Of a DNA stretch of 62,168 nt, positions 34,889 through 60,223 are shown piece by piece. The number at the start of each line of letters is the position of its first letter. Position 1 is the stretch's first letter. Origin of the DNA: a bacterium (GTDB lineage Bacteria; Myxococcota_A; Bradymonadia; UBA7976; UBA1532); contig JAUHXL010000001.1 in NCBI GenBank assembly GCA_030426945.1, forward strand, positions 1 through 62,168, read 5' to 3'. The notes beneath the pieces are model-generated. The model saw only the letters and a list, made by a program, of their open reading frames with translations, did no database searches and was not told the DNA's origin. The position numbers were made by a program, and so were the translations under genes.

Positions 34889-34924
34889 TGGGGCGACTCC
34901 GAAAGGGGTGGCGCGTGCGGGCCG

Positions 34925-34954
34925 ATTCTCGGACGCCCGCCGGCGCCCTGTCAA
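34925..34954 (-). promoter_or_regulatory. sigma70-type promoter candidate for the activator-GGDEF-TPR operon
   Basis: The minus strand reads TTGACA-N18-GAGAAT, about 30-35 nt upstream of the GTG start. Confidence 0.4.
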
Positions 34955-35087
34955 ATCTCCGTCGGTCTCGCAATCGGGGCGGCCGCGGACTATCGTCCGG
35001 TGGAACCGGCGGGGCCCCGTTGCGGACGTCGACGCCCGCGCTGCCCTGCCCTGCCCACCCGGCGCCACCGCGGGCGGAGAACCTCCC

Positions 35088-35873
<786 letters not shown>

Positions 35874-38907: not shown

Positions 38908-38965
38908 CAAGCGCTCTCCCAGCAGGCAGGGGAGCACCGCGCTCTTCGGCGCGAGTGCCCGCGCG

Positions 38966-38995
38966 ATTATAGGAGCGGCTTTCGCGCGCCCGCAA
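38966..38995 (-). promoter_or_regulatory. sigma70-type promoter candidate for the GltJ-like gene
   Basis: The minus strand reads TTGCGG-N18-TATAAT. A perfect -10 hexamer is rare in this GC-rich DNA. It lies about 55 nt upstream of the ATG, inside a 371-nt gap. Confidence 0.4.
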
Positions 38996-39278
38996 GAACC
39001 CCCTCGGTTCACGCCACGCGCCACCGAGGCCAGCCGCGGCAGGAGTCCCTGCCCGCGACGCCCTCACTACGCGCGGCGGGCGACCGAGTGTCCGCGCTCG
39101 AGCGAGAAACCCGACCGGACCCCCGGAAGAGGCCAACGCGGCGATGAGCAAGAGGAGTCGGCCGCCCGATTGCCCTGCGCCCACGGGCGCAGCATCGACG
39201 ACGGGCCCGAGGTCGACGATCCATCCCAGCCGATCAGCAGCGCCTCGCCGCCGCGGGTGGAACGGGCCGCTCGGAGGG

Positions 39279-39533
39279 TCAGCGCAGCGTCGCGTCCTTG
39301 GCGGTCGCCTTGAGCTTGGGCAGGAAGTCCTTCTTCAGCTTCAGCAGCCGCTCGAACTTCACCTTCTGCCGAGCGTCGGTGTAGAGCACCTGCGGCTTCT
39401 TGTACTGACCGTCGATGAGGAGGTCGTCGAAGTTGTAGAACTTCGTCTTCGAGTCGCCATCGTCCTGCGCGACCGCGGTGACGGGCGCGCCCATCAGCAG
39501 TCCACCCACCAGCAGCAGCTTGATCCACTTCAT
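39279..39533 (-). CDS. small secreted protein in the GltF/NfsF position
   Basis: The ATG at 39533 has a GGAGGAGG Shine-Dalgarno. The signal peptide is MKWIKLLLVGGLLMGAPVTAVA. 84 aa, located between the GltE-like and GltJ/G-like genes. Confidence 0.7.
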   Translation of the reverse strand: MKWIKLLLVGGLLMGAPVTAVAQDDGDSKTKFYNFDDLLIDGQYKKPQVLYTDARQKVKFERLLKLKKDFLPKLKATAKDATLR

Positions 39534-39656
39534 CTGAGACCTCCTCCGCGTCGCGTCCGGCACGCGCCGAGTATGATGGCCGGCGCCCGGCCTGTCGAGG
39601 CGTGTACCCGGGCCGCGCCCGCGTCATCGCCGGGTTCGTCGGACCCCCGGTGGGTG

Positions 39657-44434: not shown

Positions 44435-46344
44435 TACTTGCACACTTCCTGGAGATCGCTGCGGTAGGCGTTGATCTCGTCGGCCCAGAACTCGCCCTCG
44501 AAGGGCCAGGTGACGTACTTGTCGCCGACGAACACCAGCGCCGCGGCCTGGGACTCGACCGCCTGCGCCTCCTCGCTGTCGCCGCGATACTCTTCCTCGA
44601 TCTGCTTCTCGAGCTCGGTGGCCGCGGCCTCGTCGATCTCGATGCGAATCTCGGTGACCTGCTCCTCGAGCTCGGTCAGCTCGTCGTCGAGGCCCTGCAG
44701 CAGCTGGTTGATCTTGATGCCGAGGGCCAGCGTCCCGTCTTGCTGACGGCTCTGCACCGTCTCGAGCAGCCGCCGGGTCAGGTCGTCACCGAAGCGCGCC
44801 CTGCCCTTCTCGATGGCCGCCACCTCGCGCCGCAGCTGGGTGACCGAGGTGTACAGGTCGTAGAACTCGGCGTTCGAGATGACCGCCATGCGGAGCAGGT
44901 GCGGCAGCTCGATGCCCTTGCGGCTCTGCTGCAGCACGAACGCCCGGTAGAGCGCCTCCGGCGACGCGTACTCGGCCATGAAGTTCTGCAGGGGCGCCTT
45001 GAGCGAGAGGTAGTTCTTCTCGATGCGCTGCAGGGCGTCGTGGGCGAAGTCGAAGTGACAGTTGTTCATGAACACCGTCGCCTCGAGCAGGTGGGTGTCC
45101 GGGAGGAAGTACTCCTCCCAGTCGGGCCCATCGAGGGTGTGGAAGATGCCCATGCCCCGCTTGACGTCACCCTTCAGGAAGTACGACCAGCCGGACTCGT
45201 GCAGCGCGTTGACGTAGCTCGTCGAGTCGCTCGGCACCTTGCGGTAGTAGAAGATCGCGACGTCGAAGAGGCCCACGGAGTAGGCGATCCGCGCCAGGGC
45301 CAGGTAGGCCAGGTGCGCGACGCGGGGCTCGTCATTGGCCTCGCCGGCGGCGACCGCGCGCTCGAAGAACTGGCTGGCGCCGATCAGGTTGCGGCCGAAG
45401 TCTTCGGAGTCCTGATCCTCACCGGCGTTCTCGACGGTGACCAGGCCCAGCAGGTACTGCGCGTCCGCGTAGTCGTCACCGGCGTCCGACACCTCGCCGA
45501 GGTACTTCTGCGCCTCGTCGTAGCGGTTGTAGTCGAAGAAGAACTTGCCCAGGAAGTAGTTGTAGCTGTCCTGGAACGCCTGCGACTGGCCGCCCACGAA
45601 GTAGTTGGTCAGCGCCTCGAGCGTGACCGGGTTGTAGGCCACGCGCTTGGAGCTGCGGCGCAGGCCCTCGAAGGCCGGGGCGAACACGTCGGACTCGCCG
45701 CCGAGGTTCACCAGCTCGTGGTACATCTCCGCCGCGTTGCCGTACAGGCCCAGGCAGTACAAGGCGTCCGCGAGGCCGAGCTTGCCCGAGGCGGTGCTGG
45801 GCTTGTTCGGCGCGGCGCTCTGCAGGAACTGATCGAAGAGCTTGGCCGCGGTGTGGCAGTCGCGATCATCGAGGGCTTCGCGCGCGCCTGCGAGCGCGCC
45901 GGCCACCCGCCGCTGCTCCTCGGCGGCCATCTTGGCCCGCTCGGCGTCCGCGGCGCGCTTGGCGGCCTCGCGGATGCGGGCCTCCTCTTCGATGCGCGCC
46001 TTCTCGGTCTCCTCCTGATCGCGGAGCCGCTCGAGATCGTCCTCGGGCGCGGGCTCCGGCGCGGGCTCCGGCGCGGGCGCAGGCGCCCCACCGCCGCCGG
46101 CGGCCATCATCGCCTCGATGACGTCCTTCGGCACGCCGGCGTCCTCGAGCTTCTTCAGCTCGGCCACGGTCAGGTTGAAGGTCGAGCCGGTGGACTGGAT
46201 CGTCTGCACGATCACCTGGGCGGGCAGCCCCGACTTGTGCATCTGGATCACGTTGTCGGTCGTGATCGCCCACGCCGGCGTCGCCAGCGCCGCGACGAGC
46301 GCGACGGCCACGAACACCCGACGGAGGGATTTGCGAAACGTCAT
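44434..46344 (-). CDS. secreted helical-repeat/coiled-coil protein in the GltC/NfsC position
   Basis: The ATG at 46344 has a GAGGTG Shine-Dalgarno that overlaps the upstream stop. A signal peptide (VAVALVAALATPAWA) and a PAPEPAPEP linker are followed by a charged coiled coil and TPR-like repeats. The stop overlaps the start of the GltD-like gene. Confidence 0.72.
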   Translation of the reverse strand: MTFRKSLRRVFVAVALVAALATPAWAITTDNVIQMHKSGLPAQVIVQTIQSTGSTFNLTVAELKKLEDAGVPKDVIEAMMAAGGGGAPAPAPEPAPEPAPEDDLERLRDQEETEKARIEEEARIREAAKRAADAERAKMAAEEQRRVAGALAGAREALDDRDCHTAAKLFDQFLQSAAPNKPSTASGKLGLADALYCLGLYGNAAEMYHELVNLGGESDVFAPAFEGLRRSSKRVAYNPVTLEALTNYFVGGQSQAFQDSYNYFLGKFFFDYNRYDEAQKYLGEVSDAGDDYADAQYLLGLVTVENAGEDQDSEDFGRNLIGASQFFERAVAAGEANDEPRVAHLAYLALARIAYSVGLFDVAIFYYRKVPSDSTSYVNALHESGWSYFLKGDVKRGMGIFHTLDGPDWEEYFLPDTHLLEATVFMNNCHFDFAHDALQRIEKNYLSLKAPLQNFMAEYASPEALYRAFVLQQSRKGIELPHLLRMAVISNAEFYDLYTSVTQLRREVAAIEKGRARFGDDLTRRLLETVQSRQQDGTLALGIKINQLLQGLDDELTELEEQVTEIRIEIDEAAATELEKQIEEEYRGDSEEAQAVESQAAALVFVGDKYVTWPFEGEFWADEINAYRSDLQEVCK

Positions 46345-46354
46345 CACGACCACC

Positions 46355-47125
46355 TCAGATGATGATGCCGAGTCCCAGCGACAGCTCCACCGGGATGGAG
46401 ACGCCGCCCTGGAACTTCTGGAAGAAGAACTGGCGGTACTCGGTGCGAATGTTGAAGTTGTCGTTGATGAACCAGCGGAAGCCGAGGACGGTATTCCCGC
46501 TGGGCTTGACCACCTCGTTGCCGTCCGGGTTCGAGGCCGGGAACTCGGTGTTGTGGAAGATGCCGAAGCCGAGACCGACGTAGGTCTCGAAGTGGGTCAG
46601 CTTCAGGCCCAGCAGGCTGATCTTGCCGTAGATGGGGGCCCAGAGCAGGTCGATGTTGTAGTAGAAGTTGATCTTCTCCTGGATGTCGGCCCGCTTGAGG
46701 CCGATGCCCTCGCCCTCGAGGAAGCCGGCGAGATCGCTCTCGACCTGGATGGCGTACGAGAAGGACGCCTCGACCATGAAGGCCTCGGAGAAGTGGTACC
46801 CGACGCGCCCGCCGATCGGGTAGTACACGACGAAGTCGTCGTTGGGCACGATCGACAGCGTCGGCACCGACAGCTCGATGCGACCGTCCTTCTCGTACAG
46901 CCGCTTCTGGACGACCTTCACCTCGCGGCGCTTGCCCCAGAAGAGATCGAGATCCTCCTCGAGCGCTCTCTCGGCCTCGGTGGCCGTGTCGTCGCTCACG
47001 TCACCCGTGGGCGCGGCTGCGCCCTCGTCGTCGGCCGGCGCACCCTCGGGAGCTTCCTGCGCAAAGGCCGGCCCGGACAGGGCCAGCACCGCCAGGGCGG
47101 CAACCAGCAACAGCACCTTGTTCAT
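46355..47125 (-). CDS. outer-membrane beta-barrel protein, GltA/GltB/NfsA/B-like
   Basis: The signal peptide is MNKVLLLVAALAVLALSGPAFA. Alternating amphipathic beta strands follow. The C-terminus ..VELSLGLGIII ends in hydrophobic residues, as is typical of OMPs. Confidence 0.75.
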   Translation of the reverse strand: MNKVLLLVAALAVLALSGPAFAQEAPEGAPADDEGAAAPTGDVSDDTATEAERALEEDLDLFWGKRREVKVVQKRLYEKDGRIELSVPTLSIVPNDDFVVYYPIGGRVGYHFSEAFMVEASFSYAIQVESDLAGFLEGEGIGLKRADIQEKINFYYNIDLLWAPIYGKISLLGLKLTHFETYVGLGFGIFHNTEFPASNPDGNEVVKPSGNTVLGFRWFINDNFNIRTEYRQFFFQKFQGGVSIPVELSLGLGIII

Positions 47126-47145
47126 CGAGGTCTCGCTCCCTTTGC

Positions 47146-48375
47146 TCACTGCTTGTTGAACCACAGCCGGGTGTCGTCGAAGTCGCGACCGCTGCTGCCA
47201 CGCGACAGCGCCTGCGACCGCGACCGGCCGCCCAGAGTCACCGTCAGCTCGGTCGACAGGAAGTAGTTGTCGGGCGGGAAGGCTGCCCGGTTCATCGTGG
47301 TCTCGGTCCGCAGGCGCCAGGTCCCGACGATGCGGTTGCGCACGATCGACTGCAGGTTCTGGCTCTCGGTGAACTCGGCGGGCGCCTCGATGAAGAGGTA
47401 CTCGCCCCCGGTCCGGCAGGCCAGGTTCACCAGGTCGGGGTTCCGCCCGCGGGTGAAGCCGGGGCTACCGTCGGTGGGGATCGGCGGCTGCAACTGCATG
47501 ACGATGACCGGCACCGGGCCGCCCGCGCGGCTGGCGTAGCGCTCGGTGACGGCCTGCAGGTTGGTGGCCGAGGTGTCGCCGCTCTCGACGCCGTCGGTGA
47601 AGAGGATCACCACCGGGTTGAGGTCGCGGTTGCCCTCGCTGTCGATGATGCGGGTCAGCGACTGGTCGAGGGCGTCGGCGAGGGGCGTCAGGCCGCCCTC
47701 GTCGAACTGCAGCTCCCCGATGCCGTCGGCGATGTTCTCGCGGTTCGGCTGGGGCGTCGAGAACTGCTCGGTGATGTTGACGAACGAGCCCTTGAAGGAG
47801 ACCAGGGAGACCAGGTACTCGCGGGGCAGGTTGTTCACCAGCTGCTGGAAGAAGGCGATGCGCTGGTCCTCGCGGTCCGTCGCGTTCGCCGTGTTGATCA
47901 TCTGCGTGAAGGGATCCTCGCCGATGAGGCTGCCCGAGTGATCCATCAGCAGCACGACCAGGCGCCGATCCTGCTGGCGCTCCTCGCCGCCCGAGTACTC
48001 GAACTGCAGGCTCAGCGTGCGCAGATCCACGCCCTGCTGCATGCCGCTGTTCTCGCCGAGGGCGATGCCGACCTCGGGCACGTCGAGCGTGCTGTCGGCG
48101 GTGCGGGCGAAGGCGAAGTCTTCGTGGGACAGGAGCTCCGAGACGGGCTGGAACTCGCGCTGCAGCCGATCATCGGGGAGAAGCGCCGTGGTGCCGTCGA
48201 GCATCATGACCGAGATGTCGATCATCTGCAGATCATCGGACACCTCGCAGGCGCCCGGCACCAACAGCCGGGTGAAGGTCGGCCGCGTGGGGTCGAGCCC
48301 GACGGTCGAGTCGCACCCCGCCAGGCCACCCGCGGCGACCGCCGCGGCGGCCAGAATCCGGTTCATTCTGCGCAT
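47146..48375 (-). CDS. VWA-domain lipoprotein with an intact MIDAS motif
   Basis: The ATG at 48375 has a GAGGAAAGGA Shine-Dalgarno. The lipobox is LAGC. VVLLMDHSGSL gives the DxSxS motif, followed by ..VSLVSFKG.. and ..VVILFTDGVES. Confidence 0.8.
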   Translation of the reverse strand: MRRMNRILAAAAVAAGGLAGCDSTVGLDPTRPTFTRLLVPGACEVSDDLQMIDISVMMLDGTTALLPDDRLQREFQPVSELLSHEDFAFARTADSTLDVPEVGIALGENSGMQQGVDLRTLSLQFEYSGGEERQQDRRLVVLLMDHSGSLIGEDPFTQMINTANATDREDQRIAFFQQLVNNLPREYLVSLVSFKGSFVNITEQFSTPQPNRENIADGIGELQFDEGGLTPLADALDQSLTRIIDSEGNRDLNPVVILFTDGVESGDTSATNLQAVTERYASRAGGPVPVIVMQLQPPIPTDGSPGFTRGRNPDLVNLACRTGGEYLFIEAPAEFTESQNLQSIVRNRIVGTWRLRTETTMNRAAFPPDNYFLSTELTVTLGGRSRSQALSRGSSGRDFDDTRLWFNKQ

Positions 48376-48441
48376 CAAGGTCCTTTCCTCGGGGCCCGGC
48401 ACCTCGCGGATCCGCCCCACCCTCCGCTTCGCGAACGCGAC

Positions 48442-48470
48442 TTGCTAGCACGACCCCCAAGTGGTGTCAA
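48442..48470 (-). promoter_or_regulatory. sigma70-type promoter candidate for the VWA/Glt-like operon
   Basis: The minus strand reads TTGACA-N17-TAGCAA, about 65 nt upstream of the ATG at 48375. Confidence 0.35.
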
Positions 48471-48522
48471 CGGCGCCCCCCGAGGGCCCTCGGAGCCGCT
48501 TCGCAGGCCGTTTTCCGACCAT

Positions 48523-48551
48523 TTGACACCATCTGGGCCGGCGCCTAGTCT
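48523..48551 (+). promoter_or_regulatory. sigma70-type promoter candidate for the lipoprotein array
   Basis: TTGACA-N17-TAGTCT on the plus strand, about 180 nt upstream of the ATG at 48730. Confidence 0.4.
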
Positions 48552-48729
48552 TGCAGTGCGCGCAGCCGGGCGATTAAAGCGATCCGCGGTGGTCCGGCCC
48601 GAGTGAAAAAAGTTGCACTGGGCCGGCGCACCTCCGTACGGGACTCCTCTTCGCTGCGTCGAGGAGCCTGGGGCGGACCCGCTCGGCACAACGGTACGGC
48701 CCGCGCTCGCGGGCTGCTGGAGACAACGG

Positions 48730-50817
48730 ATGATGCACGCCGCGGCCCTTCCGCGCACCTTTCGCTGGTTCGCCTTCGCCGCCCTCGGCGGCCTCGTGAT
48801 GGCCGGCTGTGACGACGAGGGCCTCGACGTCACGCGCACCGGCAGCATCGAGATCACACCGCCCCAGTACACCTTCCCCAAGATCTCGCCGGGCAGCCGC
48901 GGCGACCGCGAGGTGTTCATCGAGAACACCGGCTCGGGCGCCGTGCTCATCCGCAAGATCCGCCTCGACCTGGGTGACCGCGGCGACTTCCAGCTGTTCT
49001 GGAAGACCTCGTCCGAGGGCGAGGAGTACCAAGGGCTGACCCGCGCCGGGGAGGACCGCTTCGACTATCCGGTGCGCATCGATCCGGACGAGCGGCTGTA
49101 CCTGGTCCTGGAGTACGCGCCCGAAGACACCTCCTTCGAGCAGGGGCGCGTCCTGCTCGACACGAACCTGCCCGAGGGCGAGGTCGCGATCCCGGTGGTG
49201 GCGTCGGAGGCCGGCGCCGAGATCAACGTCGCGCCGCGCACCGTCGACTTCGATCGCGTGCCGGCCCGGGACGAGGCGACCCGCGACGTCGTGGTCACGA
49301 ACGTCGGCCAGGCGACGCTGAACGTCACGCAGATCCTCCTCAACGGCTCCCAGGACTTCACGCCGCTGGTCAACGGGAAGGATCCCCGTCGCGGCCAGCG
49401 GGAGGTGCTGCTCGACGCGGACGGCGACGGCATCGCTGGCCTGGCGCCGAACCAGCAGTTCACGATCTCGGTGCGCTACGCGCCCCAGATCGAGGGCCCG
49501 GACACCGGCGAGCTGAGCATCTTCAGCGACGATCCCAACCAGCCCGAGGTGAAGGTGGAGCTGCGCGCGAACGGCGCCACGCCCTGCCTGGACGTGAACC
49601 CGCCCGCGCTGGAGTTCCCCACGAGCCTCGTCAACCGCATCGACTCGCGGCCGCTCTCGATCGAGAGCTGCGGGGGCCAGCAGCTGCAGATCGACAACAT
49701 CCGCCTGAGCGACGACAGCGATCCCGCCTTCGCGCTCGACGAGGAGAGCCTGCCGGAGACGCCGGCGCTGCTGCCCGCCTACCTGCCGGGCGACATCCCG
49801 CCGAGCCGATCGATCCGCGTGTCGTTCACGCCGCGGGAGCAGCGCATCCACAACGGCACGCTGATCATCGAGAGCTCGGATCCCGTGACGCCGAGCCGCG
49901 AGGTCAGCTTGCTGGGCCGCGGCGTGCTGAACGCCTGCCCCCAGGCCCGCGCGGTGCAGGACGCCTTCGACGTGCTGCCCCTCGACGTGGTGGTGCTCGA
50001 CGGCGCGCCGTCGATCGACCAGGACGGCCCGGGCAACCGGCCCGTCGAGTACGAGTGGGTCATCACCAGCCGCCCCGAGGGCTCGGTCTCGCAGCCGGTC
50101 GAGGGCTTCCTCGACGCCGCGAACCCGGCCGCCGGCGGCGTCGACGACGTGCTCGAGACGCCCATCGCGCTGTTCTGGGTCGATCTGGCCGGCACCTACA
50201 CCGCCGAGCTGCGCGTGAAGGACAACCTGGGCCTGGACTCGGTGGCCTGCGACAACGCCGCGGTGGTGACCATCATCGCCAAGCCCGACGAGGCCATCCA
50301 CGTTCAGCTGGTGTGGGAGACGCCGGGAGACGCGGATCTGACCGACGCCGAGGGCGCCGACCTGGATCTACACCTGCTGCACCCGAGCGCGCCCAACTGG
50401 TTCGCCGCGCCCTACGACTGCCACTTCCTGAACCCCGTGCCGGACTGGGGGCAGCCCGACAACCCGGCGGACGATCCCTCGCTCGACATCGACGACATCG
50501 CGGGGGGCGGGCCGGAGAACATCAACCTGGACAACCCGGAGAACACCGGCGTGCTGGGCGCCCCGTACGCGGTGGGCGTGCACTACTACAGCAGCCGCGG
50601 CCGCATCAGCGGGCAGGAGTTCGGCCCCAGCTTCGCGCGGGTGCGCATCTTCCTGAAGGGCGAGCTGAGCTACGACTCGACCGAGGATCGGGGCGAGGAC
50701 GGGGCGCGCGAGCTCGAGGCCGAAGATCACTTCTGGGACGTCGCGCGCATCCACTGGCCCGAGATGCGCGTCGAAGCACGGGATCAGTACTTCACGCAGC
50801 GCCCCGACGCCGAGTGA
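48730..50817 (+). CDS. lipoprotein P1: three Ig-like (choice-of-anchor-D/ASH-type) repeats, a PKD-like domain, and an Asp-rich C-terminal module
   Basis: The lipobox is VMAGC. The motif xxVDFGxVxxxxxxxxxVxVTNxGxxxLxI recurs, for example VDFDRVPARDEATRDVVVTNVGQATLNV. The PKD-like segment is LDGAPSIDQDGPGNRPVEYEWVITSRPEGS. The C-terminal motif is DLDLHL...YDCHF..PDWG...DDPSLDIDDIAGGGPENINL. Confidence 0.8.
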   Translation: MMHAAALPRTFRWFAFAALGGLVMAGCDDEGLDVTRTGSIEITPPQYTFPKISPGSRGDREVFIENTGSGAVLIRKIRLDLGDRGDFQLFWKTSSEGEEYQGLTRAGEDRFDYPVRIDPDERLYLVLEYAPEDTSFEQGRVLLDTNLPEGEVAIPVVASEAGAEINVAPRTVDFDRVPARDEATRDVVVTNVGQATLNVTQILLNGSQDFTPLVNGKDPRRGQREVLLDADGDGIAGLAPNQQFTISVRYAPQIEGPDTGELSIFSDDPNQPEVKVELRANGATPCLDVNPPALEFPTSLVNRIDSRPLSIESCGGQQLQIDNIRLSDDSDPAFALDEESLPETPALLPAYLPGDIPPSRSIRVSFTPREQRIHNGTLIIESSDPVTPSREVSLLGRGVLNACPQARAVQDAFDVLPLDVVVLDGAPSIDQDGPGNRPVEYEWVITSRPEGSVSQPVEGFLDAANPAAGGVDDVLETPIALFWVDLAGTYTAELRVKDNLGLDSVACDNAAVVTIIAKPDEAIHVQLVWETPGDADLTDAEGADLDLHLLHPSAPNWFAAPYDCHFLNPVPDWGQPDNPADDPSLDIDDIAGGGPENINLDNPENTGVLGAPYAVGVHYYSSRGRISGQEFGPSFARVRIFLKGELSYDSTEDRGEDGARELEAEDHFWDVARIHWPEMRVEARDQYFTQRPDAE

Positions 50818-50910
50818 CGACCCGCGCGCCCGGCTGAGGTCAGCCGACGACCCCGGCCGCGCGGCGGCGCGGGGTCGTTTCGTTTCCGGAGACCGTTCGT
50901 GGAGAACCGC

Positions 50911-52953
50911 ATGTCGCCTCGTCCCTGCCGCAGTCTCCTCGGCTGCCTCGCGCTGCTCGCCGTCGCCGGATGCGGCGAGGAGCGCTCGACGAAGACGCCC
51001 CTGTTCGAAGCCCAGCCGAGCGCCTTCACCTTCGCCAAGCTGGAGATCGGGCAGTCCGAGGTCCGACGGGTGCAGGTGCTGAATCGGGGGAGCGGCGCCC
51101 TGGTGATTCAGAACCCCAGCCTCGAGGACGGCTCGACGACCGGCAGCGAGTTCTCGCTCTTCATCGAGCAGGACGGCGAGCTGCAGCCGGCGCCGGCCCG
51201 CCTGGAGCTGCCCGGCAACAGCGACGACACCATCACGCTGGCCGTGCGCTACGTGCCCGCCGACGAGGACGCGACCATCGACAGCGGCGCGGTGCTGCTG
51301 CAGACCAACGATCCGGACGCGCGGGACGTGCGCATCCCCATCGGCTCCGGCGGCCAGGGGGCCGAGATTCGGGTGTCCCCGCGCACGCTCGACTTCGGCG
51401 AGGTCGAGGCCGGCGCCGTCGGCAAGCGTGATCTGGTCATCACCAACATCGGGCTGGTCGAGCTGGTCATCACCCGCTTCGCGGTGAGCGGCAGCCAGGA
51501 CTTCGGGGCGACGCAGGACGACCGAGCCCTCTTGGGGGATCTGGCCGAGCCGATCATCGTGCCGCCCGGCGAGACGACGACCATCCAAGCGACCTACTCG
51601 CCCCCCACGCTGGGCCCGGACAGCGGGGAGCTGCAGATCTTCTCGAACGACGTGGCGTCGCCGGTCACCACGGTGGAGCTGAACGCCAACGGCGCCGCGC
51701 CCTGCCTCAACGTGATCCCCGAGAGCCTCGACTTCGGCGCCGGGCTGCTGGTCGAGAGCGTGAACGCCGAGACGCCGAACAAGCTGCCCCTCACGCTCGA
51801 GAGCTGTGGCACCACCCCGCTGCGCATCGATCGGCTCGAGCTCGTGGGCGGTGACGGGGTGTTCCGCCCGCTGGAGCTGCCCGAGGTGGCCGAGGGCGAT
51901 CCCCTGTTCCTGCTGCCCGCGGCCAGCGAAGACACCTTCCCCACGCAGCAAGTGCAGGTGGGCTTCTGGCCCACCGAGCTGCGGGCCTACGGCGGTCAGC
52001 TGCTGGTGCACAGCAACGCCTCGCGGGAGCCCTTCCCCGTCGATCTGTTCGGGCGCGGCGTGGACAACGCCTGCCCGGTGCCCGCGGTCACGACGGATCG
52101 CTACGACGTGCAGCCGCTCGACATCGTGACGCTGGACGGCACGCCGTCGGCGGATCCCGGCGGGCGCGTGGAAGACTACATCTGGACGGTGGTGTCTCGC
52201 CCGGATGGCAGCGTGAGCCAGCCCGTCGAGCGCTTCGGGGATCCGCGGCGACCGGCGGACGGCGGCGATCCGGACGACGAGACCACGCCGCAGGCCTTCT
52301 TCTTCGTGGATCTGGCCGGGCTGTACGAGCTCGAGCTGCAGGTGCGCGACAACCTGGGCCAGCTGAGCTGCGATCCCAACGCGGTGGCGCGGGTGGTCAT
52401 CGAGGCGGTGCCGGACAAGGATCTCCACATCCAGCTGGTGTGGTCGACCCCCTCGGATCCGGACGAGACCGACATGATCGGCACCGACGTCGACCTGCAC
52501 CTGCGGCACGAGCGCGGACGCGATGGCTGGGGCAACGACGCCGGGGTGTGGGATTGCTACTTCCGACAGAAGTCGCCCGACTGGGGCATCGAGGGCGAGG
52601 TGGCGGACAACCCCACCCTGGACATCGACGACACCAACGGCGCCGGCCCGGAGAACATCAACCTGTCGGATCCCGAGGTGGGCGTGACCTACGACGTCGG
52701 TGCGGTGTACTTCCGGGCCGAGAGCACCTTCGGGCTGCCGGACGCCGACCGCCGGATGGAGCACGCGAGCTACGTGACCACGCGCATCTTCGTGCGCGGC
52801 GAGCTGCTGTACGAAGCGGTCGACCGCGAGCTGACCACCGTGCAGCAGCTCTGGTGGGTCGCCAGCGTGGAGTGGTGTGAGGACTTCGCGCGCTGCCCCG
52901 TGGTCGAGCCCGTGGATCGCGTGCTGAGCGAGGCCGACTGGGCCATGCCCTGA
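50911..52953 (+). CDS. lipoprotein P2, a paralog of P1 with the same architecture
   Basis: The lipobox is AVAGC. Example repeats are FTFAKLEIGQSEVRRVQVLNRGSGALVI and LDFGEVEAGAVGKRDLVITNIGLVELVI. The C-terminal motif is VDLHL...WDCYF..PDWG...DNPTLDIDDTNGAGPENINL. Confidence 0.8.
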   Translation: MSPRPCRSLLGCLALLAVAGCGEERSTKTPLFEAQPSAFTFAKLEIGQSEVRRVQVLNRGSGALVIQNPSLEDGSTTGSEFSLFIEQDGELQPAPARLELPGNSDDTITLAVRYVPADEDATIDSGAVLLQTNDPDARDVRIPIGSGGQGAEIRVSPRTLDFGEVEAGAVGKRDLVITNIGLVELVITRFAVSGSQDFGATQDDRALLGDLAEPIIVPPGETTTIQATYSPPTLGPDSGELQIFSNDVASPVTTVELNANGAAPCLNVIPESLDFGAGLLVESVNAETPNKLPLTLESCGTTPLRIDRLELVGGDGVFRPLELPEVAEGDPLFLLPAASEDTFPTQQVQVGFWPTELRAYGGQLLVHSNASREPFPVDLFGRGVDNACPVPAVTTDRYDVQPLDIVTLDGTPSADPGGRVEDYIWTVVSRPDGSVSQPVERFGDPRRPADGGDPDDETTPQAFFFVDLAGLYELELQVRDNLGQLSCDPNAVARVVIEAVPDKDLHIQLVWSTPSDPDETDMIGTDVDLHLRHERGRDGWGNDAGVWDCYFRQKSPDWGIEGEVADNPTLDIDDTNGAGPENINLSDPEVGVTYDVGAVYFRAESTFGLPDADRRMEHASYVTTRIFVRGELLYEAVDRELTTVQQLWWVASVEWCEDFARCPVVEPVDRVLSEADWAMP

Positions 52954-53151
52954 CCGTCCCTCCGCCTCGCCGTCGGCGGCGCGGCGCGCCGCGTCGTCCG
53001 CGCCCTCCCCTTCCGTCGAGTCCATTGCCCGCGAACCCACCGCGCTTCGCCTTTCGCAGAGCGGGTTTGCGCCCAGGTTTGGCCGCTGCCCCGCTTGTCG
53101 AGGCGCGCCGGCCGCTGCTAAGGTGGCGCACCGGTCGCGCAGGAGCTTCAG

Positions 53152-56100
53152 ATGGTCCATGTGTTGCGTTTCGGCGCTTTCGTCACCCTTGCGGCGAGCC
53201 TCGCCGCGGTCGTCGGCTGCAGCGACGAAGACAGCGGTGGCAGTGGCATCCGCCGGCAGGCCTTCCCGCGCATCGAGGCCGAGCCTGGGCAGATCGTCCT
53301 GAGCGCCGTGCCCGTGGGCGAGAGCACCTTCAAGGTGGTCAAGCTGCGCAACATCGGCGGCAGCAAGCTGCGCATCTCGGGCATCGAGTTCTCGAACGCC
53401 ATCGACACGCGCGAGTTCGAGAAGTCGCACCCGGCCCTGCCCCTGATCCTCGAGGCCGGTGAAGAGGCCGACCTGCGGGTCGACTACTCGCCGCGCAACG
53501 AGGGCACCGACGCCGGCTGGATCACGATCCAGAGCAACGACGTCGGCGGTGAGGATCTGCGCATCCCGATCAGCACCACCCAGTCGACGACCGACCTTCA
53601 GGTGATGCCCGACCGGCTGGTGTTCGTCAGCCCCAACGGCGTCCCGCTCGAGAAGACGGTGACGCTGACCAACTACGGCAACATCCCGGTCAGCATCGTC
53701 GACATCAAGCTGAGCGACGACACGTCGAGCGACTTCACGCTGTCGACCAACCGGGACGCTCGGCCCGAGCTGGCGCGCGACGACACCCTCGAGATCGGGG
53801 TGACCTACACCCCCAGCGGGCAGGACTCCGACGAGGGCACGCTGGTCATCGAGGTGGACGACGCGGCCATCGGCTTCATCCAGGTACCGCTCGTCGGTGA
53901 CGAGCCGGCGCCGGAGATCGACGTGAACCCAGGGTCGGTCATCTTCGGCGCGGTCGACCTGAACACCGAGACCGACGTCGAAGGCATCGTGATCCAGAAC
54001 CGTGGCACCGCGCCGCTGAACATCTCGCGGATCGCCTTCGCGGTCGCGCCGGGCGGCGTCAACGAGCAGTTCACCCTGCACGACGTGCCCGACGGCCTGA
54101 GCTCGGACAACCCGCTGGTCATCGAGGCCGAGGACTTCGTGCGCATCGGCGTGTCCTACCACCCGTCGGTGGACGGGGCCCACGGCACGGCCATCGCGAT
54201 CAGCAGCAACGACTCGGACGAGTCGCTGGTGACCGTGCCGATCAGCGGTCGCGTGCGGAAGCCCTGCATCTCGGTGCAGCCGGAGCGCGTGTCCTTCGGG
54301 CGGGTGGCGCTGGGCCAGGAGAGCGCGCGCACGGCGGTGCAGGTGGTCAACTGCGGCGACCTGCCGCTGACGCTGGATCCGGTGGAGGTCGAAGGCGACG
54401 GCTTCGCCTGGGCGCGCACGGACGGCATGCCGGCGGGGCCGATCGAGATCCAGCCCCTCGGCGCGCTGAGCCTGGACGTCTGGTACACCAACCGCGATCT
54501 GGCCGAGGGCGCGCTGGCCGAGGGTACGCTGCACATCAACAACAACACGCCGGATCAGCCGGTGGTGGACGTGCCCCTGCAGGTGGTGGGCGGCGGGGCG
54601 CCGACCTGCGACCTGCTGATCATCCCCGACCGAGTCAACTTCGGCTTGGTCAGCCGCGGGCAGGACCGGACGCGGGAGCTGCAGCTGGTGAACCGCGGGA
54701 CGGGCGCCTGCGAGCTGCGCAGCCAGGAGATCATGCCCCTCATCGTGATCCCGATCCCCGGCTTCGATCAGGTGAAGTTCTTCCTCACGCGGCCGGTGGC
54801 CGCGCTGCAGGTGCCGCCGGGCGCGTTCCTGCCCTTCGAGATCACCTACCGCCCGGACGTCTTCAGCGCCGACTCGGCGCGCTTCACCGCGACCTTCTGG
54901 GATCCCTTCCAGATGGAGGAGCGCAGCACCTTCGCGGATCTGCAGGGCGTTGCGGGTGAGAGCAACATCGAGGTCATCCCCGGGCGCCTCGACTTCGGCC
55001 AGGTGACCGCCGGCGAGTGCGCCTCGCGCGAGGAGCGCGTCACCGTCTACAACACGGGCGTCGTGGATCTGTGCATCACCGGCGTGCAGCTCGAGGGCCC
55101 GGACTGCGACGAGTTCCTGGTGGTCGATCGGCCGGTGGCCGACGCCGACGGCTGCATCGTGGTGACGCGTAACAGCCCGGCCGACGTGCGGCTGGTGTAC
55201 GAGCCGGGCAACCTGGGCGGCGACGGCTGCGATCTGGTGTTCGAGAGCGACGCCAGCGACAACCCGACCCTGCGCGTGCCGCTCGAGGGCGAGGGCATCC
55301 GCGACCGGCGCCAGACCGACATCTTCGAGCAGACCAGCGGGCGGCAGGTGGACGTGCTGTTCGTCGTCGACAACTCGGGCTCGATGAGCGAGGAGCAGGA
55401 CAACCTGCGCGACAACTTCGGCGACTTCATCACCGGCGCGCAGCAGTTCCAGAACGACTACCAGCTGGGCATCGTGACCACCGACATGGACAACCCGAAC
55501 CAGTCGGGGCGCCTGCTGGGTGATCCGCCCATCCTGCGCCGGGCGCCGGGCGTCGAGAACACCTTCCGCGACCGCATCCGCGTGGGCACCAACGGCGCCG
55601 GCGAGGAGCACGGGCTCGAGGCGGCGCAGGCCGCGCTGAGCGATCCCCTGGCCTTCGACACGGGCGTCGCCTGCGCGGGCGACGGCGACTGCGTGGAGCC
55701 GGACCGCTGCGTCGAGGGCTTCTGCGGCGGACCGAACCGCGGCTTCGTGCGGGAGGGCGGCGCGCTCGAGGTGGTGTTCGTCAGCGATGAGGACGACTTC
55801 AGCCCCGGCGCGCTCAACTTCTATGTCGACTTCCTGAAGAACATCAAGGGCTTCCGAAACGAGTCGCTGTTCCACGCCCACGCGATCGTCGGCGCGCTCG
55901 ACGGCCGCGCGCGGCAGTGCGAGAGCGGCAACGGGGCGGCGAGCGCGGGCTCGCGCTACGTCGAGGTGGCCGATCGCACGAACGGTCAGGTGTTCAGCAT
56001 CTGCGACGCCGACTTCGGCCGACCGCTGCAGGAGATCGGCAACCAGGCCTTCGGCCTGCCGGTGCAGTTCTTCCTGTCCCGGCCCGCCCTCGGCGCGACC

Positions 56101-56253
56101 ATCACGGTGACCGTGGACGGCCAGCCGACGCCGGACGGCTGGGAGTACGACGAGGACTCCAACTCGGTGGTCTTCGAGGAGGCCACCGTGCCGCAGGCCG
56201 GCCAGACGATTCAGGTGGATTACGAGGCGCAGTGCTTCGCGCGCCGCGGCTGA
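53152..56253 (+). CDS. lipoprotein P3: about six Ig-like repeats plus a C-terminal VWA-like domain
   Basis: The lipobox is VVGC. The repeats are of the same type, for example VIFGAVDLNTETDVEGIVIQNRGTAPLNI. The C-terminal VDVLFVVDNSGSMSEEQDNL carries a DxSxS motif. Confidence 0.8.
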   Translation: MVHVLRFGAFVTLAASLAAVVGCSDEDSGGSGIRRQAFPRIEAEPGQIVLSAVPVGESTFKVVKLRNIGGSKLRISGIEFSNAIDTREFEKSHPALPLILEAGEEADLRVDYSPRNEGTDAGWITIQSNDVGGEDLRIPISTTQSTTDLQVMPDRLVFVSPNGVPLEKTVTLTNYGNIPVSIVDIKLSDDTSSDFTLSTNRDARPELARDDTLEIGVTYTPSGQDSDEGTLVIEVDDAAIGFIQVPLVGDEPAPEIDVNPGSVIFGAVDLNTETDVEGIVIQNRGTAPLNISRIAFAVAPGGVNEQFTLHDVPDGLSSDNPLVIEAEDFVRIGVSYHPSVDGAHGTAIAISSNDSDESLVTVPISGRVRKPCISVQPERVSFGRVALGQESARTAVQVVNCGDLPLTLDPVEVEGDGFAWARTDGMPAGPIEIQPLGALSLDVWYTNRDLAEGALAEGTLHINNNTPDQPVVDVPLQVVGGGAPTCDLLIIPDRVNFGLVSRGQDRTRELQLVNRGTGACELRSQEIMPLIVIPIPGFDQVKFFLTRPVAALQVPPGAFLPFEITYRPDVFSADSARFTATFWDPFQMEERSTFADLQGVAGESNIEVIPGRLDFGQVTAGECASREERVTVYNTGVVDLCITGVQLEGPDCDEFLVVDRPVADADGCIVVTRNSPADVRLVYEPGNLGGDGCDLVFESDASDNPTLRVPLEGEGIRDRRQTDIFEQTSGRQVDVLFVVDNSGSMSEEQDNLRDNFGDFITGAQQFQNDYQLGIVTTDMDNPNQSGRLLGDPPILRRAPGVENTFRDRIRVGTNGAGEEHGLEAAQAALSDPLAFDTGVACAGDGDCVEPDRCVEGFCGGPNRGFVREGGALEVVFVSDEDDFSPGALNFYVDFLKNIKGFRNESLFHAHAIVGALDGRARQCESGNGAASAGSRYVEVADRTNGQVFSICDADFGRPLQEIGNQAFGLPVQFFLSRPALGATITVTVDGQPTPDGWEYDEDSNSVVFEEATVPQAGQTIQVDYEAQCFARRG

Positions 56254-56320
56254 GCGCCGCCTCGCGCGGTGCGCCCGCACCCACCCGCCCGCTTTTGACC
56301 TTCCGAGAGAGGTTCGACCG

Positions 56321-57913
56321 ATGAAGCGCACCCCGCGCCCCCTGTCCGTCGGCGCCGCCCTGCTGGTGGCCCTCGCCGTCCTCGCGGGCTGCGACGACGG
56401 CATCGAACGCAACGAGTCCAACGACATCCTGACCGAGCCCGAGTACAACGAGGTGGCGGACGGCGTGTACATGGCCGAGCTGCGCTACAACCCCAAGCGG
56501 CCAGGCCAGTCCGAGTCGAAGCCCCTGCGCGTGCGCCACGGCGGCATCACGCCCCTGCGCATCCGCGACCTGTACCTCGAGATGCAGGAGACGCCCGGCG
56601 CGAACGAGCCCTGGACCCGCATGGACCAGTGCAGCCGCGTGACCCAGGGGCTGGCGCCGGGTCAGCCCTTCCCGCCCCCCGCCGACACCGCCTGCTGGTT
56701 CGCGATCGACCAGGGACCCGAGCTGCCGCTGGTGCTCGAGGACGACGCCTTCGAGGACTACTCGATCGTGTTCAGCCCGCCCGAGGACGGGGAGCCCAAG
56801 CCCTGGCGCGTGGTCATCGAGACCAACGTCATCGAGAAGCCCGTGCTCTACGTGACGCTCGGCGTCGTGGCGACCGCGCCGCGCATCGACGTCAACCCGC
56901 GCACCGTCGCCTTCGAGAGCCCCTCGCAGATGGCCAGCGCCCCCCTCCAGGTGTTCAACCGCGGCACGGGCGTGCTGGTGGTCAGCCGCTTCGAGCTGCT
57001 GCTGCAGACGCCGCCCTACATCGATCCGGCGACGCAGCAGCCGGTGCCGGAGATCAAGGTGGAGCCGCGCGGCGAGTGGTCGGAGGTGCAGGCGAACCGC
57101 TCGCAGGAGTACCTGATCACCTACGATCCGCAGGATCAGGAGGCCGATCACGCCACCCTGCGCATCATCAGCAACGATCCGAACACGCCGTCCTTCGACG
57201 TGACGATCACCAGCGAGCCGGTGTCGAGCAACCTGGTGGTGCAGCCCAACCCGGTGCAGTTCCCCGAGGTGAACCCGGGCGGTCAGGCGCAGCAGTCGCT
57301 CAGCCTGACCAACTCGGGGCTGAAGGATCTCGACATCATCGACATGCGGCTCGAGCAGCCCGGCGAGGAGTACAGCCTCGGCGACCAGCAGCGCAGCTTC
57401 CAGCTGCGGGGCGGGGCCAGCCGCGAGATCATGGTCACCTACCAGCCGCGCAGCGCCGAGGGCAGCAACGCCGAGCTCGTCATCCAGACGCAGAACGCCG
57501 ACAACGTGCCCAGCAACGAGCTGCGGGTGCAGCTGGTGTCGAGCGGGACGCAGGTGGCCGCGCTGCAGCTCGATCGCCTGCAGATCGACTTCAGCGCCGT
57601 CGGCTTCGACGACATGGCGACCGAGCAGATCACCTTGACCAACCCCGGCACCGCGCCGCTCGAGGTCACCCGCCTCGAGATGAGCACCGACGCGGACGTG
57701 GCCAACGGCATCCTGCCCAGCGATCCCGAGTTCACGCTCAGCGCCGGGGGCGGCGCGACGACCATCGAACCGGGCGCCTCGCACACGGTGATGGTGACCT
57801 TCGCGCGTGGCGCCGATGATCGCGCGCGCCACATCGGCGCGGTGGTGATCGAGAGCAACGCCAACAGCAGCCCCGACTCGATCAACCTGGTCGCGAACCC
57901 GCCCGCCGAGTGA
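56321..57913 (+). CDS. lipoprotein P4: about four Ig-like repeats
   Basis: The lipobox is VLAGC. Example repeats are VQFPEVNPGGQAQQSLSLTNSGLKDLDI and IDFSAVGFDDMATEQITLTNPGTAPLEV. Confidence 0.78.
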   Translation: MKRTPRPLSVGAALLVALAVLAGCDDGIERNESNDILTEPEYNEVADGVYMAELRYNPKRPGQSESKPLRVRHGGITPLRIRDLYLEMQETPGANEPWTRMDQCSRVTQGLAPGQPFPPPADTACWFAIDQGPELPLVLEDDAFEDYSIVFSPPEDGEPKPWRVVIETNVIEKPVLYVTLGVVATAPRIDVNPRTVAFESPSQMASAPLQVFNRGTGVLVVSRFELLLQTPPYIDPATQQPVPEIKVEPRGEWSEVQANRSQEYLITYDPQDQEADHATLRIISNDPNTPSFDVTITSEPVSSNLVVQPNPVQFPEVNPGGQAQQSLSLTNSGLKDLDIIDMRLEQPGEEYSLGDQQRSFQLRGGASREIMVTYQPRSAEGSNAELVIQTQNADNVPSNELRVQLVSSGTQVAALQLDRLQIDFSAVGFDDMATEQITLTNPGTAPLEVTRLEMSTDADVANGILPSDPEFTLSAGGGATTIEPGASHTVMVTFARGADDRARHIGAVVIESNANSSPDSINLVANPPAE

Positions 57914-58444: not shown

Positions 58445-60223
58445 GTGCCGCAGGTCTTTCAGGGCCGCCTGCAGCGCCAACCGCCGCGCGATCCGGCGCG
58501 GTTGGTGCGGGCCACCGAGGCGCTGTTCGAGCCGATCACGCACCGACGTCGCCTGGACGCCTGGATCACCTGGGACGGCCCCGCAGCCCTGCGCCGCGCG
58601 GCGGCGCTGCTGCCCGAGGGCTTCGACGGCTTCTTCGTCGACCTCACCGCCCGCGCGGATCCGGCCTTGCTGCCGACCTACCTGGGCTGGCTCGAGGCGC
58701 TGCGCGGTGGCCGCCTCGCGCTGCAATGCCTGGAGCCGGGGCGGTCGAACGAGGTCGCGTTGGATCTGCGCGGCCGGCCGCCCCTGCGGCTGGACGATCC
58801 GCGGCTCCGGGTGCTCGATCCGCGCCCCGGACGCCAGCTGCGCTACACCGAGCTGAGCGACGGCGCCGCCGCGCCCCGCGCCCGCCGGACCCTGGCCGCC
58901 GCCCGGGTGGCCGCGGCCTACGCGTCGCTGGGACTGCCGGCGGCCTTCGACGACTGGGCGCACGAGGTGGCGGGGGCGGCCCTCGAGGACGCGCCGCTCC
59001 CCCCCCCGGCCCAGCTCGCGCCCGCCCCCTGGGGGGGTCCCGCGCCCGCCGGACCCCCGGACGCGGCGGTGGGGCTGCGCCTCGAGGACGGGACGCCCTT
59101 CGCGCTGCAGCTGACCGCCGCCTCGCCCGCGAAGGCGCTCGCGTCGGTCTTCGCGCACTGGCTGGGCTGGCTGGAGCAGCTGGACGTCGTGCGGGTGCGC
59201 TGCACGGGCGCGCTGCCCGAGCTCGAGGCGCTGCTCGACATCCTGGACGTGGAGGATCACCCCGATCGGCCCCGCGACGCCTTCGGGGTGGCGACCGCCG
59301 GGCTCGACGAGGGGCTGCCGGCCTCGACGGCGATCAGCCTGCTGAGCGACGGCACGCTGGCGGATCAACTGCAGGACTGGAGCTTGCGCTGGTCCGACCT
59401 GCGCTTCCGCCTGCAGGGCGCCCTCGACGCGCCCGACGCGCCGAGCGAGAGCGCCTACGTGGTGCGCAGCGAGCGCGGTCAGGTGTTCGACACGCTGACG
59501 GTCAGCCTGCCCATCGACGATCCGGACGACGGCGCGCTGCGCAACGCGCGCCGTCAGCTGGCGGTGACGCTGGGTTCGGAGATCGGCCAGGCCTCGCTCT
59601 GGCAGCTCGAGGGTCAGCCCCTCGACACGCCGGCCGGGCGCGCCTGCGCCGAGCTGTGCGCGCGGCTCGAGGCGGCCAAGGACACGGCGCGGGCCGAGGG
59701 CGGCGCGGTCGGATCCCCTCCCCGCCGCGCCCCCGCGGCCCTGCGCTGGCTGCGCGGCGTCTTCCGCGGGCGCAACGCGCGCCCGGGCGTCGATCTGGTC
59801 GCCCTGATGCAGGCGGCGATGAGCGGGGTGCTGGCGGGCTTCCGCCACGACCGCGCGGCGCACGTGACCGATCGGTACTTCATCGAGTTCGTCCGCCGCA
59901 CGCCGCATGGCTTCCACTCGATTCAGCTTCAACGCCTGCACGCGCCGCCCGGGCACACGGTGAACGTCGGGGTGAGCCGGGTGCGCGCGCTCATGGGCGA
60001 TCTGCAGCCGGCCGTGGGCCGCGCGGTGCCCGGGTTGGCCTTCCCGCTGGGCGCGCTGGTGCCGGAGCGGGCCGAGCTGGCCTGGCGGTACGGCAGCCCG
60101 GCCGAGGCCCGCGCGGCGGTGGCCGACACGGTGGCGGTGCTGGCCGCCCGGGCGGCGCCCTTCTTCGAGCGGGCCGAGCGGGTGCTGGCAGAGACGAAGG
60201 ACGAACCGCGGGGGGCGGCATGA
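58445..60223 (+). CDS. hypothetical protein (592 aa), no recognised domain
   Basis: The plus frame has consistently high GC3, whereas the antisense 527-aa ORF is Arg/Gly/Ala shadow. The gene starts 2 nt after the YkgJ stop. Its stop overlaps the next gene's ATG as ATGA. Confidence 0.6.
   Translation: MPQVFQGRLQRQPPRDPARLVRATEALFEPITHRRRLDAWITWDGPAALRRAAALLPEGFDGFFVDLTARADPALLPTYLGWLEALRGGRLALQCLEPGRSNEVALDLRGRPPLRLDDPRLRVLDPRPGRQLRYTELSDGAAAPRARRTLAAARVAAAYASLGLPAAFDDWAHEVAGAALEDAPLPPPAQLAPAPWGGPAPAGPPDAAVGLRLEDGTPFALQLTAASPAKALASVFAHWLGWLEQLDVVRVRCTGALPELEALLDILDVEDHPDRPRDAFGVATAGLDEGLPASTAISLLSDGTLADQLQDWSLRWSDLRFRLQGALDAPDAPSESAYVVRSERGQVFDTLTVSLPIDDPDDGALRNARRQLAVTLGSEIGQASLWQLEGQPLDTPAGRACAELCARLEAAKDTARAEGGAVGSPPRRAPAALRWLRGVFRGRNARPGVDLVALMQAAMSGVLAGFRHDRAAHVTDRYFIEFVRRTPHGFHSIQLQRLHAPPGHTVNVGVSRVRALMGDLQPAVGRAVPGLAFPLGALVPERAELAWRYGSPAEARAAVADTVAVLAARAAPFFERAERVLAETKDEPRGAA

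Follow-up and report, generated by a model that had tools for sequence, protein, structure and literature searches.

An array of Ig-repeat lipoprotein genes divergent from a Glt/Nfs-type operon in Bradymonadia: a candidate adhesion set

CglB of Myxococcus xanthus, an outer-membrane lipoprotein of 416 aa with a von Willebrand factor A (VWA) domain and a MIDAS (metal ion-dependent adhesion site), co-purifies with and depends on GltA, GltB, GltC, GltH and GltK (Sci Adv 2023, PMC9946355). CglD, a beta-integrin-like gliding adhesin of the same organism, is a lipoprotein exposed at the surface through which the Glt-CglB apparatus is anchored calcium-dependently, with residues 644-1111 having been matched to integrin beta3 (3FCS_B) and its link to the gliding machinery being discussed as perhaps having arisen only within the Cystobacterineae (bioRxiv 10.1101/2023.10.19.562135). 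Lipoproteins of the Bd0875-type MIDAS family serve adhesion and prey invasion in Bdellovibrio (Nat Commun 2024, PMC11003981). Here, an array of four lipoprotein genes built on immunoglobulin-like (Ig) repeats, designated P1 to P4, is compared with these systems. It is located at positions 48730-57913 of a 62,168-nt stretch of DNA (contig JAUHXL010000001.1 of assembly GCA_030426945.1, Bradymonadia; the whole stretch, with ~70% G+C, is referred to as the window) and is divergent from an operon resembling the Glt and Nfs clusters of Myxococcus. With moderate confidence, we consider P1-P4 to be lipid-anchored stalk-and-head binding proteins which are co-expressed with a Glt/Nfs-type machine and serve it as adhesion set.

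The lipoprotein array and the divergent Glt/Nfs-type operon

P1 (695 aa, 48730-50817), P2 (680 aa, 50911-52953), P3 (1033 aa, 53152-56253) and P4 (530 aa, 56321-57913) are encoded by four consecutive genes on the plus strand, with the lengths listed in a preliminary description of this DNA and with a G+C content at third codon positions, by which the calling of open reading frames (ORFs) was guided, of 0.93-0.95. All four proteins had been claimed to be lipoproteins, and each indeed possesses an N-terminal hydrophobic segment and, at the end of the predicted signal peptide, a lipobox of the pattern [LVIM][ASTVIG][GAS]C, that is, MAGC at residues 24-27 of P1 (Cys27), VAGC at 18-21 of P2, VVGC at 20-23 of P3 and LAGC at 21-24 of P4. 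The lipobox cysteine is conserved in at least 90% of 48 P1-family homologues, while the residues at position +2 after it are D, G, S and D in P1 to P4, respectively.

The bodies of the proteins consist of choice-of-anchor-D repeats, three in P1 (aa 36-394), three in P2 (aa 28-379), six in P3 (aa 37-711) and four in P4 (aa 50-523), the latter containing nothing else. These 16 repeats were counted with a hidden Markov model (HMM) made from the array's own repeats (consensus V.P..F..V..G......N.G...L.I), the E-values of which are accordingly circular. Independently, the NCBIfam model choice_anch_D (NF012200) delimits 3, 2, 6 and 3 stretches, hence broadly the same counts with one fewer in P2 and P4, and its scores of 82.9, 68.8, 169.4 and 82.2 bits for P1 to P4 are all above the curated cutoff of 45 bits. 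Together with related Pfam matches in the array (ASH, HYDIN/VesB Ig, Cep192_D4 and PapD-like), this profile-HMM parsing agrees with the Ig-repeat signature noted before, which had been assigned to the choice-of-anchor-D/ASH/PapD-like type. The designation of the genes as four paralogues, in contrast, needs to be restricted. P1 and P2 are related end to end (40% identity), whereas P3 and P4 have only the repeats in common (about 25% identity), and the term therefore applies to the whole array at the level of the repeats alone.

Upstream of P1, on the minus strand, the first gene of the divergent operon (47146-48420) encodes the lipoprotein VWA424 (424 aa, lipobox LAGC), having a VWA domain with the MIDAS motif DHSGS at residue 160. 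It is followed by the genes of a 269-aa outer-membrane beta-barrel, OMP269, of the GltA/B or NfsA/B kind (46355-47164; TIGR04565, OMP_myx_plus, 98 bits at a cutoff of 60), a GltC-like tetratricopeptide repeat (TPR) protein of 639 aa (44434-46353; NF033756, E 3.7e-54, 184 bits, cutoff 450), a multi-TPR protein of 1133 aa in the position of GltD/NfsD (41042-44443), a GltE-like TPR lipoprotein with the lipobox LVGC (39657-41045; NF033758, E 3.7e-29, 102 bits, cutoff 225), a secreted 94-aa protein in the position of GltF/NfsF (39279-39563; an 88-aa gene is found at the same place in the related locus L001) and a GltJ/GltG-like protein (37000-39024; NF033761, E 3.6e-52, 178 bits, cutoff 450). The latter combines a zinc ribbon, a GYF domain and an AgmX/PglI TonB-C-like tail, and its periplasmic linker includes an extended stretch of (KGDEA)n pentapeptide repeats. 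The gene order of the Nfs (NfsA-H) and Glt clusters in Myxococcus, reportedly laid out by Luciano et al. in 2011, served as basis for a comparison of collinearity, and the succession of barrel, C-like protein, large TPR protein (D), TPR lipoprotein (E), small secreted protein (F) and TonB-like protein (G/J) corresponds to it. This order is also conserved in related loci.

Array and operon are separated by a control region (48421-48729) of 309 nt when the longest ORF of VWA424 is considered; the 354 nt previously given for the divergent spacer hold if this lipoprotein starts at Met16. Two back-to-back sigma-70-like promoters are predicted in this region. The plus-strand promoter comprises TTGACA (48523-48528), a 17-nt spacing and TAGTCT (48546-48551), and the minus-strand promoter TTGACA (complement of 48465-48470), likewise 17 nt and TAGCAA (complement of 48442-48447) preceded by TGc. 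The -35 boxes of the two, separated by about 50 bp, are inverted repeats of each other (GGTGTCAA / TTGACACC), and this gap could accommodate a common regulator site. The promoters were recognised by eye and by conservation, as about 15 of 21 orthologous spacers show a -35/-10 pair on both strands, with the conserved forms TTGACAC-N14-GTGCTAGCAAGGCGC on the minus and TTGACA-N17-TAnnnT on the plus strand. None was reported by a stricter consensus promoter scan of the spacer because both -10 boxes match just three of six positions. A terminator scan from P1 to the gene of a 592-aa protein downstream of the array did not reveal convincing internal terminators.

The VWA head of P3 and the C-terminal module of P1 and P2

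The C-terminus of P3 (aa ~719-1033; 55306-56250) comprises an integrin-beta-I-like VWA domain and a small beta-sandwich. When residues 712-1033 were modelled by AlphaFold2 (pLDDT 92.9), the best Foldseek matches of the model were integrin beta headpieces (5e6s_B with E 1.8e-9 and probability 1.00; 3fcs is also in the list). The MIDAS motif D740-x-S742-x-S744, DNSGS at residues 740-744 (55369-55383), is fully preserved in relatives, with D740, S742, S744 and the distal D879 being invariant in 53 homologues. Hence, sequence and model both confirm the VWA-like domain with a DNSGS MIDAS at the end of P3 that had been recognised at the outset, while a PDB sequence search with this C-terminal region gave nothing useful. 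Among the gliding and adhesion families, P3 matches the CglD model NF033765 with 26 bits (E 1.8e-6), its residues 717-952 corresponding to positions 630-873 and thus to the VWA region alone, and does not reach the equivalog cutoff of 400 bits. The match to the Bdellovibrio MIDAS adhesin model NF052240 amounts to 43.7 bits over model positions 48-115 of 378, at a cutoff of 700 bits. Some homologues of the P3 head stand by themselves, with a length of about 340 aa, and others are combined with one or two Ig repeats.

P1 and P2 had been described as adding a PKD-like domain and a common Asp-rich C-terminal module to the repeats, and both are present. The PKD domain is located at aa 403-519 of P1 (49936-50286) and at aa 388-501 of P2. 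In the AlphaFold2 model of P1 residues 403-695 (50 homologues, pLDDT 93.6), the region 403-519 adopts a PKD fold resembling those of AAVR (6ihb_R, TMt 0.80, rmsd 2.1) and ColH (4u6t_A, TMt 0.77). At the sequence level, the gathering cutoffs of the Pfam PKD families were missed, P2 scoring 17.6 bits with K319L-like_PKD (cutoff 27) and P1 giving no match. The last 175 residues of both proteins form a separate beta-sandwich in the predicted structure, in the following called C-module (aa 520-695 of P1, 50287-50814; aa 502-680 of P2, 52414-52950), with mainly acidic and aromatic conserved residues (DLDLH, DCYF, PDWG, DDPxLDIDD and GxGPEN). Binding of calcium by the C-module, as suggested in the preliminary description, is plausible.

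PDB sequence searches with the C-terminal region of P1 and with a C-module profile did not identify a relative, and the sole fold match, to the TerD-like calcium-binding beta-sandwich, was weak (3ibz, E 5e-3, TMt 0.48). The family itself, however, is large. Searching 1.84 billion cluster representatives with the C-module profile retrieved at least 3,571 proteins at E <= 1e-3, each representing a cluster at 50% identity, and 512 at E <= 1e-30. Within the members found, the module is almost always C-terminal. No Pfam model covers it in ten diverse module-bearing proteins, the cluster look-up of which returned neither names nor taxa, and 25 isolated C-modules did not match any Pfam family significantly. 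For DUF2135 (PF09906) in particular, Pfam gave no match with P1 and weak ones in 5 of 25 members (best E 0.062), whereas aligning the C-module profile with the DUF2135 protein YfaP of E. coli by hhalign resulted in a probability of 81% and an E-value of 1.2e-5 over 66 columns with 35% identity. The core motif D-x-DLDLH ... LD-x-D ... G-x-GPE ... Y-x-V-x-x-YY is shared, and an alpha-2-macroglobulin gene is a neighbour in both cases, as E. coli yfaP sits in the operon of the alpha-2-macroglobulin gene yfaS and a C-module gene pair adjoins such a gene in the locus L058 (see below). Unlike DUF2135/YfaP, the C-module is extended by two additional loops (xPYDCYF and PDWG..DDP), and its C-terminal half is longer. 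Because of the hhalign result, the weak Pfam matches and the alpha-2-macroglobulin neighbourhood, the C-module is tentatively treated as a divergent, remote DUF2135-like domain. For a family of this size lacking a Pfam model, this first, tentative tie to DUF2135/YfaP would make both families more tractable.

Conservation of the block and competing explanations

The closest relative, sharing about 95% protein identity, is the metagenome-assembled genome (MAG) 'Myxococcales bacterium HK-STAS-MYXO-8'. Beyond that, about 17 species representatives of GTDB, which carry the labels Myxococcales, Bradymonadia or Nannocystaceae, have the whole block in collinear form, reaching from the GltE-like gene to VWA424 and divergently from P1 through P4, in part including a CxxCxxCC gene behind P4, and four further short contigs keep the VWA424-P1 junction alone. 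Identities across the syntenic block go down to about 45% for P1 and to about 27-30% for P4 and VWA424. Among the P1-family loci long enough to judge, 21 show the junction (about 17 of them with the whole block) and five are located elsewhere. These five are single or paired paralogues, and in no case did all four genes of the array turn up together apart from the Glt-like operon.

Three distant Glt-like clusters were found via GltC homologues with 31-34% identity. In one of them (L055, GltC 34%), three Ig-PKD-C-module genes and a P3-like Ig-repeat gene are placed on both flanks of the Glt-like operon, including divergently to it, and inside it, the P3-like gene being cut by the locus end so that a VWA region is not visible. 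In a second one (L057, GltC 31%), a single Ig-PKD-C-module gene is divergently oriented. The association of Ig-PKD-C-module and Glt genes hence recurs, in rearranged form, in distant lineages.

In the explanation we favour, P1-P4 would most likely be lipoproteins of the outer membrane that are exposed on the cell surface. By analogy with Myxococcus xanthus, the VWA lipoprotein would be held and exposed by the barrel/GltC platform in the outer membrane, against which motor-driven periplasmic TPR and TonB-like parts would push. P3 as the CglD-like component, together with P1, P2 and P4, may provide metal-ion-dependent anchoring to a substratum, a polymer or prey, with the Ig repeats as spacers projecting the binding heads by roughly 15-25 nm. 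Both operons would be expressed together from the back-to-back promoters, and the array would represent the adhesion and substrate-coupling set. In proposing this, we infer the localisation, the interaction with the barrel/GltC platform, the metal dependence and the process served, be it gliding, polymer transport or prey contact. The preliminary description had already suggested that the array works with a gliding-type machine. This idea gains from the conserved block, the promoter pair and the recurrence at two distant, rearranged clusters, but the modules as such are not Glt-specific. Its statement that no characterised function is known for the combination was too strong, as P3 has an integrin-beta-I-like VWA head of the CglD kind and VWA424 parallels CglB. 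A surface layer, also suggested there, found no specific support; the one Foldseek match to the S-layer protein SbsB reflects a generic Ig fold (TM 0.15-0.26) and this interpretation was dropped.

Several observations weigh against a Glt-dedicated adhesion set. The approximately 17-21 syntenic genomes belong to one clade, and part of the synteny is therefore inherited. The third of the distant Glt-like clusters (L056) has two VWA424-like genes and no P1-like gene within 10 kb. P1-like paralogues are found immediately downstream of M1 aminopeptidase genes in the loci L003 (4387-13752) and L004 (6878-12088), in the former with an overlap of 4 nt and followed by a second, shorter Ig-PKD-C-module gene. 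In L058 (MAG KLAP118, 1841-9908), two tandem Ig-PKD-C-module genes are positioned directly upstream of a gene encoding a 1606-aa alpha-2-macroglobulin, and short P3-like Ig-betaVWA genes lacking Glt neighbours are present in L059 and L060. Moreover, the matches of the GltC-, GltE- and GltJ-like proteins are all below the NCBIfam equivalog cutoffs, so that the operon has to be addressed as a Glt/Nfs-type cluster, orthologous to neither; it could be Nfs-like or serve something besides gliding. An AglRQS/TolQR-type proton motor is not encoded within the window, though it may be encoded elsewhere, as is the case in M. xanthus. VWA424 gave no detectable match to gliding-family models including CglB in a relaxed NCBIfam scan, and it contains only 3 cysteines as opposed to 17 in CglB. 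Finally, the host lineage is uncultured. In the literature, nothing relevant was found that joins choice-of-anchor D to gliding.

P1-like paralogues are encountered in still other contexts (L006, L026, L027, L029 and L032). In L032 (8016-10666), a beta-VWA gene that resembles the P3 head and stands by itself is placed immediately upstream of an Ig-PKD-C-module gene, so that the two kinds of head accompany each other in the absence of a Glt cluster as well. Since P1-like and P3-like genes exist away from Glt clusters, the modules are to be regarded as general, but the assembled array is Glt-linked. As to phylogenetic co-occurrence, proposed from the start as a check, the full array was accompanied by a Glt-like operon wherever it was seen, and single P1-like or P3-like genes were also found without it.

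This generality is the basis of the most serious competing explanation, unlikely in our judgement but with some weight, namely that the array is an independent, general-purpose surface adhesin or matrix system directed at prey, particles or biofilm matrix and adjacent to the Glt-like operon by descent, without a mechanistic tie. Ig-PKD-C-module proteins do constitute an extensive family of their own (the module is borne by at least 3,571 clusters at 50% identity), same-genome paralogues are encoded elsewhere (L003, L026, L029 and L058), Ig plus beta-VWA lipoproteins exist alone in unrelated contexts and choice-of-anchor D is a generic surface-protein module. Mere descent, however, does not fit well with a four-gene array never observed apart from a Glt-like operon, with the junction being found in 21 P1-family loci versus 5 placed elsewhere, with a conserved promoter architecture, with an association re-created in another gene order in L055 and L057, and with a P3 head of the CglD type.

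A function in protein capture, associated with proteases or predation, appears quite improbable. According to this explanation, the DUF2135-like module would act with secreted peptidases or protease traps in nutrient acquisition or envelope defence and not in traction. The hhalign tie to YfaP with its yfaS operon, the pair upstream of the alpha-2-macroglobulin gene in L058, an arrangement that echoes E. coli yfaP-yfaS, and the M1 aminopeptidase neighbours in L003 (with stop-codon overlap) and L004 all point in this direction. Nevertheless, neither a peptidase nor an alpha-2-macroglobulin gene is present in or beside the array of the window, the CglD-like head of P3 and the Glt linkage are left unexplained, and in the literature searched no paper on DUF2135 function and nothing relevant on DUF2135 or on YfaP with YfaS was found. 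Very little probability is likewise assigned to P1-P4 being inward-pointing structural parts at the outer membrane, with Ig stalks that would bridge the barrel/GltC platform to the periplasmic TPR proteins and replace GltK, GltH and GltI. In its favour, these three are not recognisable in the cluster, the majority of lipoproteins in Gram-negative bacteria are turned towards the periplasm, assemblies in the periplasm often contain Ig/PapD-like repeats, and L055 has P1-like and P3-like genes inside its Glt-like operon. Against it, VWA heads of the MIDAS type, PKD domains and repeats of choice-of-anchor D typically belong to binding proteins outside the cell, the nearest characterised lipoproteins CglB, CglD and Bd0875 are surface exposed, and P1-like genes also occur in non-Glt contexts.

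Flanking genes and comparison with described systems

Downstream of the array, the plus strand encodes a 177-aa cysteine-cluster protein of the CxxCxxCC family (PF03692; 57910-58443), the start of which overlaps the stop codon of P4, and, beginning 1 nt past the stop of this gene, the 592-aa protein mentioned above (58445-60223), for which no family or PDB match was obtained. Most of the related loci keep the CxxCxxCC gene in synteny with the array. The 592-aa protein is syntenic as well, albeit poorly conserved (28-43% identity), and has a length of about 412 aa in some relatives. Both appear to be cytoplasmic, as on inspection neither has a signal peptide, though they are part of an operon of exported proteins; their genes show translational coupling to those of the lipoproteins and are conserved along with them.

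About 7 kb from the Glt-like operon, a complete flagellar cluster for export and basal body is encoded on the minus strand (5840-29869), including FliA, a MinD/FlhG-like protein, FlhF, FlhA, FlhB, FliR, FliP, FliM, FlgE, FlgD, a FliK-like protein, FliI, FliH, FliG, FliF and FlgB. The nearest relatives of this genome are labelled Myxococcales or Bradymonadia, and the literature does mention flagellar genes in MAGs of Myxococcota. A flagellar role of the array was considered and set aside, as nothing beyond the proximity of this cluster, 7 kb upstream of the Glt-like operon, speaks for it. Between the flagellar and the Glt-like cluster, genes of a sigma-54-dependent activator, a GGDEF diguanylate cyclase and an 865-aa TPR protein (29998-35326, minus strand) are possible motility-switch regulators. 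In addition, a stand-alone homologue of ribosomal protein L3 (35946-36719, minus strand; TIGR03625, 235 bits, above cutoff) is encoded between the GltJ-like gene and the sigma-54 activator, outside any ribosomal operon.

Compared with the Nfs and Glt clusters of Myxococcus, the collinear operon of the window differs in including a VWA lipoprotein gene, in the attached divergent Ig-lipoprotein operon, in the lack of motor genes nearby and in a host that also has a full flagellar cluster. VWA424 parallels CglB and would be its positional and functional counterpart, being of nearly the same size (424 versus 416 aa), a lipoprotein and equipped with a VWA domain and DxSxS MIDAS, and its gene is placed directly upstream of those for the OMP_myx_plus barrel and the GltC-like protein, which is reminiscent of the CglB platform. 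Apart from the cysteine number, it differs from CglB in the position of the MIDAS (residue 160 versus 56), and the platform differs in having one barrel gene instead of GltA plus GltB and neither GltK nor GltH. P3 resembles CglD as a large lipoprotein (1033 versus 1130 aa) with a C-terminal VWA/MIDAS region and integrin beta templates, and each of the two has a genetic or functional tie to a Glt machine. Unlike in CglD, the N-terminal half of which consists of COMP-like DxDxDG calcium repeats and EGF-like Cys-rich modules, six Ig repeats make up that of P3; a DxDxDG motif is missing, the cysteine content is 1.6% (17 of 1033 aa) versus 4.1% in CglD, and the P3 gene adjoins its Glt-like operon. 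With the Bd0875-type lipoproteins, the P3 C-terminus and its stand-alone homologues (about 335-350 aa, one of them labelled Pseudobdellovibrio) share a match to NF052240 near the MIDAS (E 2e-11 to 1e-20). These matches reach just 40-74 bits at the cutoff of 700 and align about 60-90 model positions, and P3 has the six Ig repeats and the Glt context in addition. A location of Bd0875 in a gliding operon was considered and dropped, as it is not supported by the paper (PMC11003981).

A bolder extension of the favoured explanation, which we regard as rather improbable, is a self-contained integrin-like adhesion module for a Glt/Nfs-type machine, in which the alpha-I-like VWA424 and the beta-I-like P3 would form a ligand-binding pair. 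P1 and P2, with their DUF2135-like module, would define an unrecognised and very widespread class of calcium-dependent binding domain that links targets to envelope machines, to peptidases and to protease traps. If this were true, the pairing of adhesin and motor in Myxococcus gliding would be both ancestral and modular instead of a late innovation of the Cystobacterineae.

Glt-associated VWA adhesin lipoproteins are already known. In Myxococcus, however, the CglB and CglD genes are scattered in the genome and their link to Glt had to be found genetically, whereas in the distant, flagellated lineage studied here CglB-like and CglD-like VWA lipoproteins are kept attached to a compact Glt/Nfs-type operon with paired promoters. 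The locus thereby provides a genomic handle on the evolution of substrate coupling, and the two further protein types travelling along are candidate accessory parts to look for in model organisms. With respect to the described systems, it is new that both VWA types are packed compactly and in synteny with a Glt/Nfs-type operon, that the body of a CglD-like protein consists of Ig repeats, that two putatively DUF2135-like lipoproteins are present and that the whole ensemble occurs in a flagellated, uncultured host lineage.

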